Source: an uncultured Gemmatimonadales bacterium
Lineage (GTDB): Bacteria; Gemmatimonadota; Gemmatimonadetes; Gemmatimonadales; GWC2-71-9
Direction: 5' to 3'
Assembly (NCBI GenBank): GCA_963739455.1
Contig: CAVUAK010000001.1
Coordinates: 480,001 to 544,000 of the forward strand
DNA length: 64,000 nt
Shown here: positions 3 through 7,193 of the stretch, in pieces
Position numbering within the stretch: position 1 is the stretch's first letter
Layout: every line of letters begins with the position of its first letter
The notes under the pieces: model-generated
Told to the model about the DNA's origin: nothing
Database searches by the model: none
What the model saw: the letters and a program-made list of their open reading frames with translations, nothing else
Position numbers and translations under genes: made by a program

Positions 3-2825
3 GACTTCCGCCAGATCGAGACACTTGCCCTGAGGCTCCTCCGGTTCGACTCACTGAGCGAGGAGGGAATCCGGGCGCGGATGGAGGCGCGGGCCTTTGC
101 CGGCGACCGACTCACGGCGCTTCGCCTGTTCAAGGACTGGAAGGCGGCGCTGGCACGGAGCCTTGGCGCCGCCCCGTCGCCGCTGCTCGAGGGCATGGCA
201 CTCCGGCTGCGGCGCAGGGAGTGGGAACGTCCGGAGGCGCCCGATGTGCCGGCGGTGCGTACCGACCAGTGGCGTGGGCGGCCGTTCGTGGGTCGCGGCC
301 GGGAGTACCGGCAGCTCTATGAGGCGTGGGAGGGAACGCAGCGCGGGGAGCCTCGCCACCGCCTGCTCCTGGGTGACTCAGGCATCGGCAAGAGCACGCT
401 GGTGGAGCGCCTGACAACGGCGGCGGGGCTGGAGGGAGCCACCGTCGCTCGCGTGCAGTGCCACGACGTGGAGCGGGAGATTCCCTACGCCATGGTGACG
501 GGGCTCATCTCGCAGCTGGTGGAGCGGCCGGGATCCTCTGCTGCACCGCCTGATGCGCTGGCAGAACTGGCGCAGACCATTCCGGCGGTTCGCCAGCGGT
601 TCCCGGTGCTGCCGCCACCACTCGAGAGCCAGGGCGACGCCGCGCGCATCCGGTTCACCGAGGCGGCGCATGCGCTCATGGCGGCGGTGGCGGGAGAGCA
701 CCCGGTCATCCTGGTCATCGATGACGGCCATCATGCCGACGATGTGAGCCTTGCAGTGCTGCACCGGGTCGTTCGCCTGGCTGACAAGCAGCAGATCCTG
801 ATGCTCTTCGTCGCGCGCCCTGGTGAGCTGCAGCAGTCGCCGCAGGCCGCTCGCCTTCGCGACAATGGTGCATCACTCGGCATTCATCCACTCGAAATCC
901 AGCCGCTGGAGGAGGACGATGCCCGGACGCTGCTCGACCTGCTCGTGGCGGAACTCCAGCTCACGCCGTCGGCCACTGTCCGTCGCGCGTTGCTCGGCGC
1001 GGCGGCGGGATTCCCGCTCGTGCTTGAACTCCTGGTGCGCGACTGGGCCCGTAGCGGGGCACAGTGCCTGGCACTGAGCCTGGATGCGGTAACGGCAGAT
1101 GCGGGACGGAAGAGCGAGCCGGATGAGGCATACCAGCTCCTGCTCGACCGGTTGGCAAGGACACTGGACCCTGGAACGCGGAACACGCTGCACGTGGCGG
1201 CGGTACTCGGGCCGAGGCTCAATGACTCGGCGTTGTATGCCCTGGCCGACCTGAGGGTCAGCGAGGTGATGACGGGCCTTACGACGCTGGTGCAGTACCG
1301 GATCCTGCGAGATGGTGGGGATCATCTCGAGTTCGCGAATGACCTGGTGCGGGCGCATGCGTACTACGCGGTGCCGGCGCCGATGCGGTTGCTGCTGCAC
1401 GGGTTGATTGCGGACGCATTGTTGGAGAGGGCGGCGAACGGAGACGACTCGCTAGGACTGGAGATCGCCTGGCATTGCATGCGGTGCGGAAGGAAGGAGG
1501 AGGCGACGAAAAACCTTCTCTCGGGTGCGCGCGCGTCCATCAAGCGCGGCGCAGTGCATGAAGCCGAACGAAGACTGGATTCTGGGCTGGTCTCCTTGGC
1601 AGGGGACGCACTTGGTGAGGCGCGCCTTCTCCTTGTGGAGTTGCTGCAAGAGCAGGGACGCTGGAAGGAGTCATCAACCTTACTCGCTTCATTCCCGGAA
1701 GAGCTGGCAACCGCGAGTGGCAAGTGCTTGGCAGGGATCGCGCTGCTCTACTCTGACGAGGCCTCCGAAGCTGACGAAATCTATCTAACAAGAGTCGCTC
1801 AATCGTGCATTGCAGACACCACTCTCGATCCGCAAACGCGGCTTCGGGCACTGCGTCTTGCTGGAGGCCTGGCTCTCACCACCCGGGAACCCTCCCTCCC
1901 AAGCCTCTTCTTGGAGACAGCGCGAGCGTCGGAGCGCACGAACTGGGACGATGACGAGAACTTGGAGTGGGATACGCAGATAGTCTACCTCACACACTAC
2001 ACGCATCGGAGAATTGAACAAAGCGAGATTACGTGTAGACATCTTGAGGCACTTGCCATACGTGCACGCGCGCATACTGTCGGCAATGCACGTTCGTTTA
2101 GGATTCTGGCTGGCTTGGGGTTGTGCCACCGCCGCGCCGGTCGCTACCCGCAGGCCATAGCGTCCTATGAGAACGCCCTTGAAATTCTCGCCCGCCTGGA
2201 GCGCACGCCTTCCCTAACGTTGACGCACGGTTCGCTTGCTTCATGCTATCGCGATTTAGGCGATATCGACGCACAACGAACACATGCTCTGCGCGGAGCG
2301 TCCCGTTCGCCCCCCGCCAATTGGTTTGACATTCAAGCCCTGTTCTGGGCGATCGAGGCCTGTCACCTCTTGGGCGACACGCGTTTAGCACGGGAGCTGG
2401 CGTTCTTTCTCGAATCCGCGCCCCGGTTGCCCATGCGAGCAAGGACGCTGCAAATGCTACTCATGTGTCGCGCTGACTTCGCTTGGCTTGAGGGTCGCAC
2501 AGTTGAAGCGCTGCAGCTCGGTCGGGCGGCGGTAGTTACCGTCACACCTGAGCAGATAGACCGCAGTAACGTCAGTACCATGGCGCGTTGGCTGGCCGTG
2601 TTGAGGGATCACAATGCCTGGGAGGTCGCGCTTGATGACTTTGTTGCCGGGGTCGAGGCGCTGCAGGCGGTGTGTTGGTGGGACGAGGTTGAGCGACTGC
2701 GCGCACTGGTCAAGCTTGGAGCGGAAGAAAAGTACCACCAGCTCGAGCTATCGAAGGCCGTACAATTTGTGCCCGTCAATATCGCAGCATACCTCAAGCG
2801 CTACGGATTGGGAGACCATACCTAA
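3..2825 (+). CDS. SARP/BTAD-domain regulator with STAND (AAA_16-type) ATPase and C-terminal TPR-like region; 5' end lies outside the window
   Basis: The frame is open from base 3 (DFRQIETLALRLLRFDSLSEEGIRARMEARAFAGDRLTAL...LGAAPS, resembling the end of a BTAD domain). Walker A GDSGIGKS, Walker B ILVIDDGHHAD, helical C-terminus. Confidence 0.8.
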   Translation, partial: DFRQIETLALRLLRFDSLSEEGIRARMEARAFAGDRLTALRLFKDWKAALARSLGAAPSPLLEGMALRLRRREWERPEAPDVPAVRTDQWRGRPFVGRGREYRQLYEAWEGTQRGEPRHRLLLGDSGIGKSTLVERLTTAAGLEGATVARVQCHDVEREIPYAMVTGLISQLVERPGSSAAPPDALAELAQTIPAVRQRFPVLPPPLESQGDAARIRFTEAAHALMAAVAGEHPVILVIDDGHHADDVSLAVLHRVVRLADKQQILMLFVARPGELQQSPQAARLRDNGASLGIHPLEIQPLEEDDARTLLDLLVAELQLTPSATVRRALLGAAAGFPLVLELLVRDWARSGAQCLALSLDAVTADAGRKSEPDEAYQLLLDRLARTLDPGTRNTLHVAAVLGPRLNDSALYALADLRVSEVMTGLTTLVQYRILRDGGDHLEFANDLVRAHAYYAVPAPMRLLLHGLIADALLERAANGDDSLGLEIAWHCMRCGRKEEATKNLLSGARASIKRGAVHEAERRLDSGLVSLAGDALGEARLLLVELLQEQGRWKESSTLLASFPEELATASGKCLAGIALLYSDEASEADEIYLTRVAQSCIADTTLDPQTRLRALRLAGGLALTTREPSLPSLFLETARASERTNWDDDENLEWDTQIVYLTHYTHRRIEQSEITCRHLEALAIRARAHTVGNARSFRILAGLGLCHRRAGRYPQAIASYENALEILARLERTPSLTLTHGSLASCYRDLGDIDAQRTHALRGASRSPPANWFDIQALFWAIEACHLLGDTRLARELAFFLESAPRLPMRARTLQMLLMCRADFAWLEGRTVEALQLGRAAVVTVTPEQIDRSNVSTMARWLAVLRDHNAWEVALDDFVAGVEALQAVCWWDEVERLRALVKLGAEEKYHQLELSKAVQFVPVNIAAYLKRYGLGDHT

Positions 2826-2828
2826 CCG

Positions 2829-4220
2829 CTACGCACGCTTCGTTTTCCAGAACGCACCTGACGGTCGCGCGACACGGAGCGAACGCGGAGCAAGCGGCAC
2901 CGTTTCCTCGATAGCGCCTGACGGCCCTGCGATAAGGCGGCGCACCGCCACCGAGGACACTGCGACATCGACGATTGCCGGGTCAAACTGGGTACCACGG
3001 CACTTCTGAAGCTCAGCAATGACGATCTCTAGACTGAGACGCTTTCGATATGGTCGATCCGTCGTCATGGCATCAATGGTGTCCGCAATCAAGATGATTC
3101 GGGACGCCAGCGGAATCCCCGAGCTAGTGATCCCATCGGGATAGCCCTGACCATCCCACCTCTCATGATGATGCCGTACAGCATGTTGAATACTGCCGCG
3201 AAACTTGGAAATAATGCCAACCAATTCGGCGCTCTTTGCCGCGTGGGTCTGCATTAGTGCGGTCTCGTCATCGGAAAGTCGCGACTCCTTACGCAGAAGG
3301 GGGGCAAATTCCTCATGAATCTTCCCCACGTCGTGCAGCAACGCTGCCGTTTCGACCTCCTCGATCTGTTGCGCGGAAAGCTGTAGCTCGAGCGCAATCG
3401 CCCGCGACAGTTCGCGGACCCGGAGAGAATGGCCAGACGTGTACGGATCGCGCGCCTCGATCGCCTTCACCATGACTTGGAGGAGTTCCTGCCCACTTTC
3501 CTGGAGATTCTGGAAGAGGGCATATACATGGCGAAGGGCGACGATAGGCAACACAATCGCGATGAGGCCGACTGGCCCATATCCGATGCTGTCAACGCGG
3601 ACATAGAACCAAGACACAAACATCGAGATCACGCTCGCGCCGAGATCATAACCCAACATCCCACGCGCGTTTAGATGCCAGACCTCACGAAACGGTCGAT
3701 CAGAACCAAGTGACACTGCACCCGCAACGAGTAATTTATTCACGATCACATACACGCTGGCGAGCACGAAGAAGAGAAATAGGTCGCGCTGCACGTCCGC
3801 TGCCGCGGCAGGACCAACCAACAAGAACGACGGCGGAAACGACCCGCCAAGCAAGGTCTGATACACCAGCGCACCCAGCGCCACGGACAGCGCTCGTTGC
3901 GCAGGATTGAAAACCACCCGCTCCAGAGCAAGACCCCTACTCAGCGACGTCGCCAGGGATGCGGCCGCAGCAATTAGACCGCCCCAGAACCCTCCGAAGA
4001 GTGCCCCTGCCGAAAGGTGGACAACGAATGACGTGGAGCCTTGGGCCGAAACCCTGAGTTCGACCGGAGAGCGGTCCAGAAGGAACGACACGCCGATTAG
4101 GCTCGCGAGTGCGAGGACACCCGGAAAAGGCTGGCGAACGTACCAAGCACCGGCCATTGCTGCGGCCGCGCCAAGCACCACCAGAATTACGTAGATGTCT
4201 ACTGCCTTGAATCGGCGCAT
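2829..4220 (-). CDS. HD-GYP c-di-GMP phosphodiesterase with N-terminal multi-TM sensor domain (MASE9-like)
   Basis: EARDPYTSGHS, LLHDVGK and HHHERWDGQGYP motifs; about 250-aa hydrophobic N-terminus. ATG at 4220 with GAGGG upstream is preferred over the TTG at 4250. Confidence 0.9.
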   Translation of the reverse strand: MRRFKAVDIYVILVVLGAAAAMAGAWYVRQPFPGVLALASLIGVSFLLDRSPVELRVSAQGSTSFVVHLSAGALFGGFWGGLIAAAASLATSLSRGLALERVVFNPAQRALSVALGALVYQTLLGGSFPPSFLLVGPAAAADVQRDLFLFFVLASVYVIVNKLLVAGAVSLGSDRPFREVWHLNARGMLGYDLGASVISMFVSWFYVRVDSIGYGPVGLIAIVLPIVALRHVYALFQNLQESGQELLQVMVKAIEARDPYTSGHSLRVRELSRAIALELQLSAQQIEEVETAALLHDVGKIHEEFAPLLRKESRLSDDETALMQTHAAKSAELVGIISKFRGSIQHAVRHHHERWDGQGYPDGITSSGIPLASRIILIADTIDAMTTDRPYRKRLSLEIVIAELQKCRGTQFDPAIVDVAVSSVAVRRLIAGPSGAIEETVPLAPRSLRVARPSGAFWKTKRA

Positions 4221-4262
4221 GATCCCTCGTGAAACAGAACTGGGGGCCAACCAGTCGACACG

Positions 4263-4343
4263 CTATTTCCAGTCGTCGCCTGATGTAAGCAGCGAAAGCA
4301 ACCAGGCCACGATGTTCACTGAATCGGCCTTGCGCGTCGTCAT
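4263..4343 (-). CDS. 26-aa small protein MTTRKADSVNIVAWLLSLLTSGDDWK (putative signalling-peptide precursor)
   Basis: Read by hand; below the ORF-track cutoff. ATG at 4343 and TAG at 4263-4265. Near-perfect SD GGAGGTGA 6 nt upstream. Basic N-terminus, hydrophobic core, polar GDDWK tail; ends 42 nt before the HD-GYP start. Confidence 0.7.
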   Translation of the reverse strand: MTTRKADSVNIVAWLLSLLTSGDDWK

Positions 4344-4365
4344 TGAGCGTCACCTCCCTCCGAGA

Positions 4366-4394
4366 CCACTTCGTGTTGCACCTTCATGAAGTGG
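4366..4394 (-). promoter_or_regulatory. Stem-loop in the 5' leader of the small ORF
   Basis: CCACTTCGTG...CATGAAGTGG inverted repeat (one mismatch) just upstream of the SD. Confidence 0.4.
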
Positions 4395-4400
4395 CGAGCC

Positions 4401-4451
4401 CCGCTATGGCTCTCCGTGACGCTCCGCTTTTTTGACCCGCTAATCTCCGCT
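4401..4451. repeat. Phased CCG(C/T) direct repeats, putative regulator binding sites
   Basis: CCGCT at 4401, 4424, 4437 and 4447, and CCGTG at 4414; alternating 13/10-nt spacing. Confidence 0.35.
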
Positions 4452-4580
4452 ATTTCCTGCTCGCGTAGACCGGGGCCCCCTTAAATCCGTTTGAATTTCC
4501 CTGTCATGCGGCGCCAGGTTGCGGACCCGGCCCCGCCGAACACTTCACATTCCAGACATACAGCCAGAATTCCGGTCGCG

Positions 4581-5342
4581 CTACGAGGGCCGCCTCAGGT
4601 TGGCCCACCGGTTCGTCGCATCCATCACCGCGAACACCGCCGCCCGCTCCGCGCTCTCGCGGATCTCGGCCGTGCCCGTCAGCAGCACCGTCTCGCGGCC
4701 GCTCAACCCCTGCGCCACGATGAACACGAACTCGCGATCGAACTCCTCCACCATCCGGACACCCTCGAGCGCCAGGGAGTGGTCGCCCAGCAGCCGATCC
4801 ACCGACGAGAGCGCGGCCTTTGCCGCCGCCTCGACCCTGCCCTTGATGTTGTCCATCGCCTCTTCCTCGGCGTGCTCCACCTGCCCGTCCATCGAGAGCG
4901 ATACCTGCACCGTCACCCGGTGCGGCCGGCGACCCGCCAGCACCGTGACGTTCTCGAAGAGCATGGCTCGCTGGAGCGAACGGTCACGCACCGCCGTCGA
5001 CTCGAGCGCTTCCAGCGGCTTCACGTCCGCCGTCTGCGCAATGCTGATCTTGCGATGATCGATCTTGAGCCCGAGGTGCGCCAGCAGCGCCGACTCGATG
5101 TTCCGCACCAGCTGCTTCGGCTGGAGCCCGGCCTGGGCCAGCACGTGCACCTCGCTCACCTCACCCAGCGGCGTCGTGACGACCCGCGCGGAGAGAATCC
5201 CCTCGAGACTGGTGAGGAGGTTCTCGGCACGGCGCACACCCCACGGATCCTGCACCTCGGGCGACGGCGTTGGCCGCGGGCCTGGGCTCGAGCCGGCGCC
5301 GGGCGCACCCGACATCGGCTGACGGAACGGAGATCCGGTCAC
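4581..5342 (-). CDS. Conserved hypothetical protein (PKQxVRxIES...IDHRKISIAQ family)
   Basis: 253-aa ORF whose start overlaps the GGDEF gene stop. The C-terminal AAVFAVMDATNR helix is reminiscent of LeuA regulatory-like folds (inference). Confidence 0.75.
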   Translation of the reverse strand: MTGSPFRQPMSGAPGAGSSPGPRPTPSPEVQDPWGVRRAENLLTSLEGILSARVVTTPLGEVSEVHVLAQAGLQPKQLVRNIESALLAHLGLKIDHRKISIAQTADVKPLEALESTAVRDRSLQRAMLFENVTVLAGRRPHRVTVQVSLSMDGQVEHAEEEAMDNIKGRVEAAAKAALSSVDRLLGDHSLALEGVRMVEEFDREFVFIVAQGLSGRETVLLTGTAEIRESAERAAVFAVMDATNRWANLRRPS

Positions 5343-7066
5343 GTGCGTGTCACCTCGTGCTGCCGAGAACGCTGCGCCTCGGCGATGAGATTGCGTCCCG
5401 CCATCTTCGCGCGATAGAGCGCGCGGTCTGCCGCCACCAGCAGGTCACCATCCGCCGGCCGGTGCGGATCGAACTCCGCCACGCCGATGCTCACGGTGAC
5501 CAGTCCTGCCGGGTAGCCCAATCGGCGACCCACACCCTCGATGCCCGCCCGCAGCGCCTCGGCCACTCGCGTGGCCCCCGGAAGGTCGGTTCGCGTCAGG
5601 ATCACCACGAACTCGTCGCCACCGTACCGCGACGCCACGTCCGACGCACGAACCGCTGCCCGGATCTCTGCCGCCACCGCGCGGAGGATGTCGTTCCCCG
5701 CCTCGTGGCCATGCCGGTCGTTCACCTGCTTGAACGAGTCGAGATCGATGAACAGGACCGCGAAGGCTTCGTCACTTCGCTTGCTGCGCTCGATCTCGTA
5801 CTGCAGGCGCTCCTGGAGCACCCGATAGGTCGCGAGCCCCGTCAGCACATCGACCGCTGCCGCCCGCACCGCTTCGTCCGCCCGGCGCTCCTCGTGCGGC
5901 GGGCACTGCTTCAGGCTGGCCCGTCCCGATACCGCCGAGCGCGCGAACTGGAGGCAGGTGCCGTAGCCGCATGCACCGCAATCCCAGGCCTTGCCGTTCG
6001 ACGCCGTCCCGATCGCCGCGAGCACCGCGTTCACTGCGGCGGCATCGGCCGGTGCCGGCCGCGGCTTGATCTCGAACGTGGCGCCGATGCTCATCGTGAG
6101 CGCGCGGTCCACTACCGGACTCCGGCTCCGCGGCGGCTCGGCGCTCGCCACGAGTGCCCGCCGCCAGTAGAGCTCTTCCTTCGGGCCCGAGAGCGGGTGG
6201 TCGAGCGCACCCTCGTTCGAGAGGATGTCCACGAACCCCAGCTCGAGCCGGTCCGTCGTGACCGCGCGGGCGAGCGCCGGCAGCGCATCGAGCCCGCGAA
6301 CGATCTTGAACCGGCTGCTCGCCTGCCGCGCTTCCTCGAGCATCGCGAGGGGCATCCCGCCCGCCGCGCTCAGGTGGCGCCGGCGCTCCTCGGGGATGCG
6401 CTGGAAAAACGTCGGCTGCGTCAGGGCGCTCACACTGCGCATGCGCAGGAGCTGCTCCAGGTCCGAGAACGTCACCGCCGCATCCACCTCAGGACACGAG
6501 GGCGGCGCCACATGCCCCGCGTACACCACCGGCAGCGATGCGCCGTAACGCGCTCGCAGGTAGCGCGTCTCGGCGATCGTCGGCGTTGCTACGGGCGCCA
6601 GGTACGGCACCAACTCGGGATACTGCGTCCGGACCGTCTCCACCACCACCGGATCCGTCGACCGGACCATCGTGCCCCACGGCTCGTCTTCCCAGAGCCG
6701 CAGGTACTCCGTCGCCACCAGTTCGTCGCCGATGACTCCCCGGGTCACCACCCGGAACCCGGCTGCGTAGCAGGCGTTGATCACCTGCTCCGGCGTTGCT
6801 GGATAGAAATGAGCCGCCGACTCGGGGCTCAGGATCAGGGCGGCCGTTCCCTGACCTGCAAGCTCCAGCGCTCTCCCCAGCTCCCCGGACACCTTGACCG
6901 CCTGGTGAGGGCAGGCCGGAACGCATTCTCCGCAGCGGATGCAAGACTCGTCCACTACGCGCAAAAGCGGTGCCTCCCCAACGACTTCGATCGCATCGGA
7001 CGGGCAGATGCGAACGCAAGCGAGGCAAGCGACGCAGAGTTCAGCGTCGATCAGGAAGCTCAGCAA
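5339..7066 (-). CDS. Diguanylate cyclase with 2x[4Fe-4S] ferredoxin domain, degenerate [FeFe]-hydrogenase-like domain and extra Fe-S domain
   Basis: CVACLACVRICP and CIRCGECVPACP; DCGACGYGTC...QCP; RASD I-site and intact GGDEF. Probable TTG start at 7066 (ORF open to 7180). Confidence 0.85.
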   Translation of the reverse strand: MLSFLIDAELCVACLACVRICPSDAIEVVGEAPLLRVVDESCIRCGECVPACPHQAVKVSGELGRALELAGQGTAALILSPESAAHFYPATPEQVINACYAAGFRVVTRGVIGDELVATEYLRLWEDEPWGTMVRSTDPVVVETVRTQYPELVPYLAPVATPTIAETRYLRARYGASLPVVYAGHVAPPSCPEVDAAVTFSDLEQLLRMRSVSALTQPTFFQRIPEERRRHLSAAGGMPLAMLEEARQASSRFKIVRGLDALPALARAVTTDRLELGFVDILSNEGALDHPLSGPKEELYWRRALVASAEPPRSRSPVVDRALTMSIGATFEIKPRPAPADAAAVNAVLAAIGTASNGKAWDCGACGYGTCLQFARSAVSGRASLKQCPPHEERRADEAVRAAAVDVLTGLATYRVLQERLQYEIERSKRSDEAFAVLFIDLDSFKQVNDRHGHEAGNDILRAVAAEIRAAVRASDVASRYGGDEFVVILTRTDLPGATRVAEALRAGIEGVGRRLGYPAGLVTVSIGVAEFDPHRPADGDLLVAADRALYRAKMAGRNLIAEAQRSRQHEVTRT

Positions 7067-7193
7067 GGACTTTCCCGTGTTGGGAGGGAGGGAACTGCGC
7101 TCAGAATATCGGCATGGTGGTTCGCTAGTGTCAAGACTCGGCGGAGTGCAAAATATTGACAGTCGCTCGTTTAGCCGCATTCTGAGAGGCTAC

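Follow-up and report, generated by a model that had tools for sequence, protein, structure and literature searches.

A micro-peptide gene inside a conserved structured RNA leader is positionally linked to MASE9-HD-GYP genes in Gemmatimonadota and other phyla

The window, the whole stretch of 64,000 nucleotides analyzed in this study, contains a 26-aa micro-peptide gene that lies within a conserved structured RNA element, between a gene encoding a conserved 253-aa protein and a gene encoding a MASE9-HD-GYP protein (Table 1). These parts may form a four-part module, consisting of a candidate regulator gene, a structured leader, the micro-peptide gene, and a gene for a predicted MASE9-HD-GYP phosphodiesterase. 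In our preferred reading, which we hold with restrained confidence, the peptide is probably a cognate partner of MASE9 that acts from the inner membrane side, and its synthesis is metered by the leader. The basis of this reading is conservation, coding selection, RNA covariation, protein folds, charge bias, and co-divergence, all of which were computed; from these we infer physical binding, use of the sensor pocket, and a peptide that is either kept in the cell or passed between cells.

The ORF running from 4343 to 4263, its Shine-Dalgarno (SD) sequence, and the 42-nt gap to the HD-GYP gene, all described in an earlier note on this DNA, were confirmed on the sequence, the gap being measured from the stop of the short ORF (sORF) to the ATG (4220) of the 463-aa MASE9-HD-GYP gene. 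The earlier note had called the gene hidden, which is only partly true, because gene callers had already predicted the 26-aa product, although it is unnamed. The 5' hairpin reported there is likewise present as structure, but only as one arm of a larger conserved structure of 240 nt. The window was assigned to Gemmatimonadota because homologues of the neighbouring gene carry Gemmatimonadales names. The G+C content of the sORF-receptor block was 56-59%, compared with 68-72% upstream. Promoter and terminator scans found none in the leader, with counts at about the shuffle level. Among contigs from RNA runs, which came from relatives only, a 212-nt contig matched 4261-4453 with one mismatch and one gap, and others matched the leader; these were not taken as evidence of transcription because strand information and a DNA control were absent. 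Judged by its sequence, the sORF is a real gene under coding selection, and it is presumably translated.

Table 1. Features of the module and its neighbours in the window.
Feature	Position	Strand	Basis or remark
STAND ATPase/TPR gene	81-2825	+	converges on HD-GYP gene, 3 nt apart
HD-GYP domain, intact motifs, with C-terminal tail	2829..3506	-	
MASE9 membrane sensor, predicted ECF S-component fold with entry and exit helices; fast-diverging	3507..4220	-	
Structured RNA element enclosing leader and sORF; long-range helix P1 closes it	4242..4480	-	covariation, folding
P1 3' arm, just past sORF stop	4242..4256	-	
26-aa micro-peptide gene, Trp-ended tail	4263..4343	-	ORF list, rule scan, alignments
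P3 helix (4424-4416 with 4353-4345), closes junction beside start codon	4345..4424	-	
Shine-Dalgarno GGAGGTGA of sORF	4350..4357 (4357-4350)	-	6 nt 5' of ATG; 3' half in helix P3
P4 hairpin, covarying stem, fourth AGCG box in 7-nt loop	4396..4412	-	
Three AGCG(G/A) boxes	4422..4451 (4451-4445, 4441-4437, 4428-4422)	-	last extends into P3
P1 5' arm	4468..4480	-	
253-aa conserved protein; N-terminal alpha/beta and LeuA/CimA-type regulatory domain; candidate leader-binding regulator	4581..5342	-	
Fe-S/hydrogenase-like GGDEF diguanylate cyclase	5339..7180	-	stop overlaps start of 253-aa gene

The sensor domain was matched in 123 of 301 Gemmatimonadota genomes, a tally that includes unpublished genomes and on which no conclusion rests. 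The Gemmatimonadota sample comprised 90 loci, 30 from the top of the ranking and 60 hand-picked further down, of which 89 kept the receptor match and 88 had upstream DNA. One locus from an unpublished genome (L015, genome G057) is included in the sORF-rule and GGDEF-neighbour counts, and is excluded from all alignments, pN/pS values, peptide residue counts, box counts, and co-divergence analyses. An SD-led hydrophobic sORF was found at the same position in all 88 loci with upstream DNA. A rule requiring an SD, 12-40 aa, and a Trp within the last three residues fired in 83 of them, one of which (L077) was an out-of-frame match, leaving 82 true cases; the remaining six loci carried a positional hydrophobic ORF without the terminal Trp. 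The same rule fired in 31 of 2159 control windows of the own genome (1.4%), the locus itself included. Thus, the positional conservation upstream of receptor homologues that the earlier note had envisaged was borne out, as was its G..W-type tail, the consensus being small-E/G-G-x-x-W with a Trp end in 82/88.

The Gemmatimonadota peptides are 14-35 aa long, and their uncorrected pN/pS was 0.31 in 14 disjoint close pairs (1.1 and 1.5 in shifted frames); a short hydrophobic product under coding selection is also what characterizes small membrane modulators of the MgrB/SafA class. The signal-peptide layout that had been proposed from the window peptide did not hold as a family trait in Gemmatimonadota, where K/R occurred within the first seven residues in only 19 of 86 peptides and D/E was present in 67 of 86. 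A small-residue -3/-1 site three residues before the Trp was found in only 41 of 80. The peptide of L069 has a six-residue Trp-ended tail that is repeated twice.

Beyond Gemmatimonadota, the best 80 of 581 loci, fetched via distant relatives of the upstream protein, were sampled from Bacillota, Actinomycetota, Sumerlaeota, and Armatimonadota. A complete peptide was identified in 68 of these 80 (67 by script and one by eye), seven were truncated at a contig end or N, their peptide start still being visible, and five, in which secA follows the upstream gene, had no leader, peptide, or sensor. The peptides of this sample begin with a basic N-terminus, continue through a hydrophobic core and a GGA-type motif, and end in a variable tail; only 4 of 67 contain D/E, and 37 of 67 carry a Trp at one of their last three positions. 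Their pN/pS was 0.30 in 20 pairs, and shifted frames gave 1.1-2.5 for both sets together. In 25 of the 80 loci (L092-L171), secA lies downstream within the locus; it directly follows the upstream gene in four Moorella-group loci and L150, and in L095 the leader and peptide are present with no intact receptor before secA. Armatimonadota-type peptides with proline-rich tails, up to 39 aa long, were seen in L130, L141, L149, L155, L156, and L170, several of which have a second MASE9 or HD gene.

For an independent sample, MASE9 loci picked by Pfam only were taken from searches of two phyla, and the 60 top-ranked ones were used, less three that were dropped (<150 nt upstream); one of the two search tallies includes unpublished genomes, on which no conclusion rests. 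Of 40 MASE9-HD-GYP genes, 38 were preceded by the peptide (36 detected by script, two by inspection); among 17 MASE9 genes coupled to other outputs, it preceded two. In this set, start sites were estimated and some genes are possibly internal to operons. The two exceptions with other outputs encode histidine kinases, which supports a tie of the peptide to the sensor domain and not to the output domain, in agreement with the sensor link drawn in the earlier note. No such sORF lay directly upstream of the other 15 of 17 and 2 of 40 genes, among which are two further MASE9 kinases that were checked. Therefore, MASE9 can occur with no peptide gene next to it. The two peptide-less MASE9-HD-GYP genes (L225 and L228) directly follow what we take to be an ABC-permease-like gene and a membrane-protein gene. 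The peptide was kept without the AGCG leader in L178, L187, L175, L182, L191, and L199, and in the leaderless, low-GC loci L178 and L187 its gene is tandemly duplicated as identical copies, each with an SD. Since the peptide is retained, and twice duplicated, without the AGCG leader, it is not just a by-product of the leader.

The leader RNA, absent from Rfam, is a part of the locus that the earlier note missed, as is the upstream protein. An AGCG(G/A)AG box within 150 nt of the start was present in 84 of 84 Gemmatimonadota leaders with enough DNA and in 66 of 67 others, compared with 1.9% of random windows. The AGCG boxes are invariant and single-stranded, and their spacing varies. In 38 aligned loci, the five-helix structure had 90.2% paired cells, a score that is favoured because the structure was derived from the same alignment, compared with 84.0% for shuffles and 43-49% for slid partners. 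Double-change pairs (n = 19) were distributed as P1 10/12, P4 5/8, P5 3/7, P3 1/7, and P2 0/5. An alignment-free test detected a strong helix between the 5' part of the leader and the post-stop segment in 67 of 83 and 64 of 67 cognate pairs, and in about 40% of non-cognate and 28-37% of shuffled pairs. The P1 3' arm begins a few bases past the stop in nearly all loci and reaches the receptor start in some, and the sORF's SD and spacer are base-paired within helices P5 and P3. The window's own element adopts the five-helix fold (z -2.3), and the receptor SD (4228-4224) lies outside P1.

Searches of Rfam 15 gave one chance match only for positions 4100-4700, inside the receptor gene, no match for 12 other loci, and just an unrelated cspA leader for eight further loci. 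A search for an AGCG-leader regulon in the own genome returned seven clusters, of which, by eye, only this locus has the architecture. Elsewhere in the own genome, near G000:C3 258689 (+), four more AGCG(G/A) boxes are clustered and followed by complementary repeats. In five genomes with the upstream gene abutting secA, the leader pattern gave two matches, both in apparently coding DNA. In Coriobacteriia loci (L139, L144, L157, L159, and related ones), the P4 3' arm is by eye also complementary to the post-SD spacer, which suggests two mutually exclusive folds in those leaders.

Short repeated purine-rich boxes beside a hidden ribosome site are used for control by TRAP, HutP, and CsrA. The boxes of the present leader share a 5-nt GAG/UAG rhythm with TRAP sites, but their invariant core is AGCG instead of GGA, and the candidate binder has a different fold from TRAP, HutP, and CsrA. 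Searches of the own genome, which is 84% complete, detected no TRAP or CsrA.

The candidate binder, the 253-aa upstream protein, had no Pfam or NCBIfam family match and only unnamed clusters in the ESM Atlas, and its relatives comprised 3527 clusters at 50% identity. Its model (pLDDT 87.5) contained a C-terminal domain that matched LeuA (Foldseek E 3.6e-6) and superposed on the LiCMS regulatory domain (Z 9.7, rmsd 3.1 over 110 residues), indicating on the model that the C-terminal part has the LeuA/CimA regulatory fold. Regulatory domains of the LeuA/CimA kind bind Leu or Ile where their dimer subunits meet. LeuA-type domains without the N-terminal domain were also seen in other reading frames in L247, L248, and L249. 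The N-terminal alpha/beta domain has many invariant basic and polar residues; its tied matches to a CDF C-terminal domain, an acyl-CoA ligase C-domain, and a ring-building motif (Z ~8-9) were not accepted as its identity, and a KH-type RNA-binding role is a guess. In a sample of 18 Actinomycetota genomes, the upstream-family gene was present in 11 of 11 with boxes, in one with a cut leader, and in one of six without boxes, the no-box genomes lacking it being few, mostly small, and perhaps of one lineage. The gene is divergently transcribed in several genomes and would therefore act in trans. It stands alone, without leader, peptide, or sensor, in five of the 80 other-phyla loci, and in L209 it occurs with the peptide where the boxes are absent. 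In L052, L053, L058, L061, L076, and L079, an extra gene of ~700 nt, presumably encoding a helix-turn-helix and a receiver domain, lies between the upstream gene and the leader. We predict that the 253-aa protein binds the leader RNA.

The 463-aa protein is a predicted c-di-GMP phosphodiesterase, with an HD_5 match (E 6.6e-34) and intact HD, HHExxDGxGYP, and downstream D/R motifs. Its match to MASE9 (PF20972) was borderline (E 1e-4, 22.7 bits, below the 24.3 cut-off, and 24.7, above it, in a second search). The sensor model (pLDDT 94) consists of an entry helix, a six-helix core, and an exit helix, giving eight membrane segments. Over residues ~31-210 it gave 14 S-component matches with Z 10.4-14.2 (next match 7.6), the best (Z 14.2) having an rmsd of 2.5 over 153 residues, with identities of 9-16%. 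The six-helix core and the L1/L3/L5 pocket side are common to FolT, RibU, BioY, ThiT, NikM/CbiM, and the MASE9 model. The mean K+R of loops L1, L3, and L5 was 1.3, 3.0, and 2.7, compared with 0.4, 0.3, and 0.75 for the others, and L1 is also acidic (mean D+E 1.3). The conserved residues S62, F65, F104, N105, N161, W181, and D192 fall on the L1/L3/L5 side by sequence position.

In FolT, loops L1 and L3 form a cover over the pocket, and L1, L3, and L5 are all on the outer side (PMC4820897). Unlike FolT and other ECF S-components, which are stand-alone subunits with an outward pocket, MASE9 is fused to an enzyme, and its orientation appears inverted because L1, L3, and L5 are basic here and face outside in FolT (PMC4820897). 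The HD-GYP domain must lie on the cytoplasmic side of the membrane. These model and charge data suggest that MASE9 is an inverted S-component with its pocket opening to the cytoplasm, and they speak against the outward-facing receptor site of the earlier reading. An inward pocket fits the remark on poorly conserved periplasmic segments in the MASE9-HD-GYP preprint (10.1101/2021.11.05.467447), which also predicted eight membrane segments, with the ligand bound inside the membrane.

Tail and sensor diverge together between conserved flanks, resembling a specificity cassette. At the median of 71 loci, the sensor was 32% identical to its counterpart in the window; HD-GYP reached 62% and the upstream protein 59%. 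In close pairs, the sensor had fallen to 42% (HD 86%, upstream 98%; L032/L034) and 46% (HD 90%, upstream 97%; L026/L030), and in L048/L049, with identical tails, sensor identity stays at 94%. With the flanks controlled, tail similarity correlated with sensor identity at a partial rho of 0.28 (65 loci), compared with 0.12 for HD and 0.01 for the upstream protein, and the value for the peptide body was 0.06; the co-variation of tail and receptor foreseen in the earlier note was therefore upheld. No permutation out of 300 reached the observed correlation, in a test that ignores kinship. Because tail and sensor adjoin in the DNA, shared recombination could produce co-divergence, and the tendency of membrane domains to drift quickly anyway counts against a partner role. 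Complex prediction for the cognate pair of L012 (31-aa peptide and sensor, given as alignments) scored 0.02 against a mark of 0.32, with controls not folded, and was given no weight for or against a contact.

Among known systems, T. maritima TM1467 and S. venezuelae HdgA have the same MASE9-HD-GYP architecture (10.1101/2021.11.05.467447; PMC6205966), and the accessible parts of these sources describe no ligand, S-component fold, sORF, leader, or upstream protein; the word 'peptide' is absent from the main text of the preprint (10.1101/2021.11.05.467447). One studied MASE9 member reportedly had no phenotype, and its authors suspected a missing activating signal (PMC6205966). Tiny hydrophobic proteins that tune a membrane sensor by direct contact are likewise known for MgrB, SafA, and UgtL with PhoQ, where MgrB depends on a Trp, the targets are histidine kinases, and the regulons are separate (PMC8534201). 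In the present module, by contrast, the peptide gene keeps a fixed place before its target, an RNA structure surrounds it, and the encoded tail varies together with the sensor. As in Agr (AgrC, PMC8534201), ComCDE, ComQXPA, and RRNPP, a tiny precursor gene stands beside a multi-pass receptor; however, no AgrB/ComQ/ComAB-type processing gene was found among the window neighbours, which are the GGDEF cyclase, the 253-aa protein, HD-GYP, and the STAND/TPR protein. The Gemmatimonadota peptides also lack the thiolactone Cys and double-Gly leader of quorum precursors, and the receptor differs in its S-component fold, c-di-GMP output, and apparently inward pocket. RRNPP pheromones (Phr, NprX, PapR) consist of a Sec signal peptide and a C-terminal mature peptide and act on cytoplasmic TPR receptors, whereas this receptor is a membrane protein, and RRNPP family models gave no match for three Gemmatimonadota peptides and weak, sub-threshold matches for two of three others. 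Small membrane proteins are reportedly placed under c-di-GMP riboswitches in one study. In the literature searched, most subscription journals being outside its scope, no description of the module was found. In its presumed workings the module resembles a cognate peptide-receptor cassette or an MgrB-type modulator, but it belongs to none of these families.

In the mechanism that we propose, the hydrophobic body of the peptide would be embedded in the inner membrane, with the short aromatic tail reaching into the S-component-type pocket open to the cytoplasm and setting c-di-GMP hydrolysis, upward or downward. The leader would pair the ribosome site of the peptide by default, and the amount of peptide would depend on a protein that recognizes the AGCG boxes; the likeliest such protein is the upstream one with the LeuA fold, responding to an amino acid or similar ligand. 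The peptide-ligand idea of the earlier note is thereby kept as regards conservation, selection, sensor link, and co-divergence, and given up as regards the signal-peptide layout and outward site. Signaling might run instead through an exported pheromone, in which a secreted precursor is cut after the small-residue site and a tail of 3-6 residues acts between cells, outside or after re-import; we consider this doubtful. The non-Gemmatimonadota peptides do resemble signal peptides in their basic start, core, GGA-type site, and rare D/E, models of the PhrK family (E 0.009) and of NprX (E 0.07) are matched weakly, far below cut-off, in their N-terminal parts, and the hypervariable tail-sensor block with conserved flanks (L032/L034) recalls the pherotypes of agr/com cassettes, in which a variable ligand-receptor block lies between conserved flanks. 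The pocket loops look cytoplasmic, though, no peptidase, exporter, or modifying enzyme was found among the window neighbours, and the Gemmatimonadota peptides are mostly without a basic start, carry acidic residues, and have an inconsistent -3/-1 site. A classical exported pheromone is less likely because the basic N-terminus is not conserved in Gemmatimonadota.

The position of the P1 3' arm, just past the stop and sometimes reaching the receptor start, would also suit a pure leader ORF, whose translation opens P1 and gates HD-GYP translation while the product has no target, and the lone Trp codon close to the stop might respond to the supply of Trp. We regard this as unlikely, given that the peptide is kept and duplicated without the leader, its hydrophobic helix and tail are under coding selection, the Trp is replaced in 6/88 and missing from the last three residues in 30/67, and the window receptor has its own SD outside P1. 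The RNA could itself be a riboswitch or other protein-free sensor with the upstream protein merely a neighbour, an improbable reading that concerns the RNA alone and is compatible with the peptide model. Invariant single-stranded boxes, a junction that hides the SD, and an upstream gene without the leader in 5/80 loci are in its favor, but short repeated boxes of variable spacing, one of them displayed in a loop, better fit protein recognition, and boxes and upstream protein co-occur. Type I toxin mRNAs combine a hydrophobic product, a hidden SD, and a long-range 5'-3' helix, and the 14-35-aa product, hidden SD, and P1 of this locus agree with that pattern. It is nevertheless very unlikely that the peptide is a toxin-like small membrane peptide whose mRNA is silenced by end-to-end pairing and whose adjacency to the sensor is linkage only: in different phyla it is found as a single copy in a constant place ahead of MASE9 genes, the SD is unprotected in leaderless loci, and no relative of the sensor was found in viral contigs.

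The GGDEF gene occupies the same position in 52 of 74 Gemmatimonadota loci with enough DNA, and this recurrence, with the overlap in the window, indicates that cyclase and phosphodiesterase are probably in one operon. The 3' part of the STAND ATPase/TPR gene has a low G+C content (59-61%), as in the module. MASE9 is an orphan sensor, and the peptide is a good first candidate for its input because the variable tail changes with the sensor domain. The module thus offers a candidate input, a candidate pocket, a membrane side, an RNA outside Rfam, and a large unannotated protein family, and since the loci include cultured hosts (Desulfosporosinus, Caloranaerobacter, and Thermosediminibacter), each link is testable. 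More tentatively, and with the chances rather against it, the family might represent strain-specific signaling across several phyla, in which an inside-out vitamin-transporter fold serves as peptide receptor for c-di-GMP or, rewired, for a kinase, an amino-acid-sensing RNA-binding protein sets the output via an undescribed structured RNA, and the tails would be kin-recognition pherotypes of soil bacteria.
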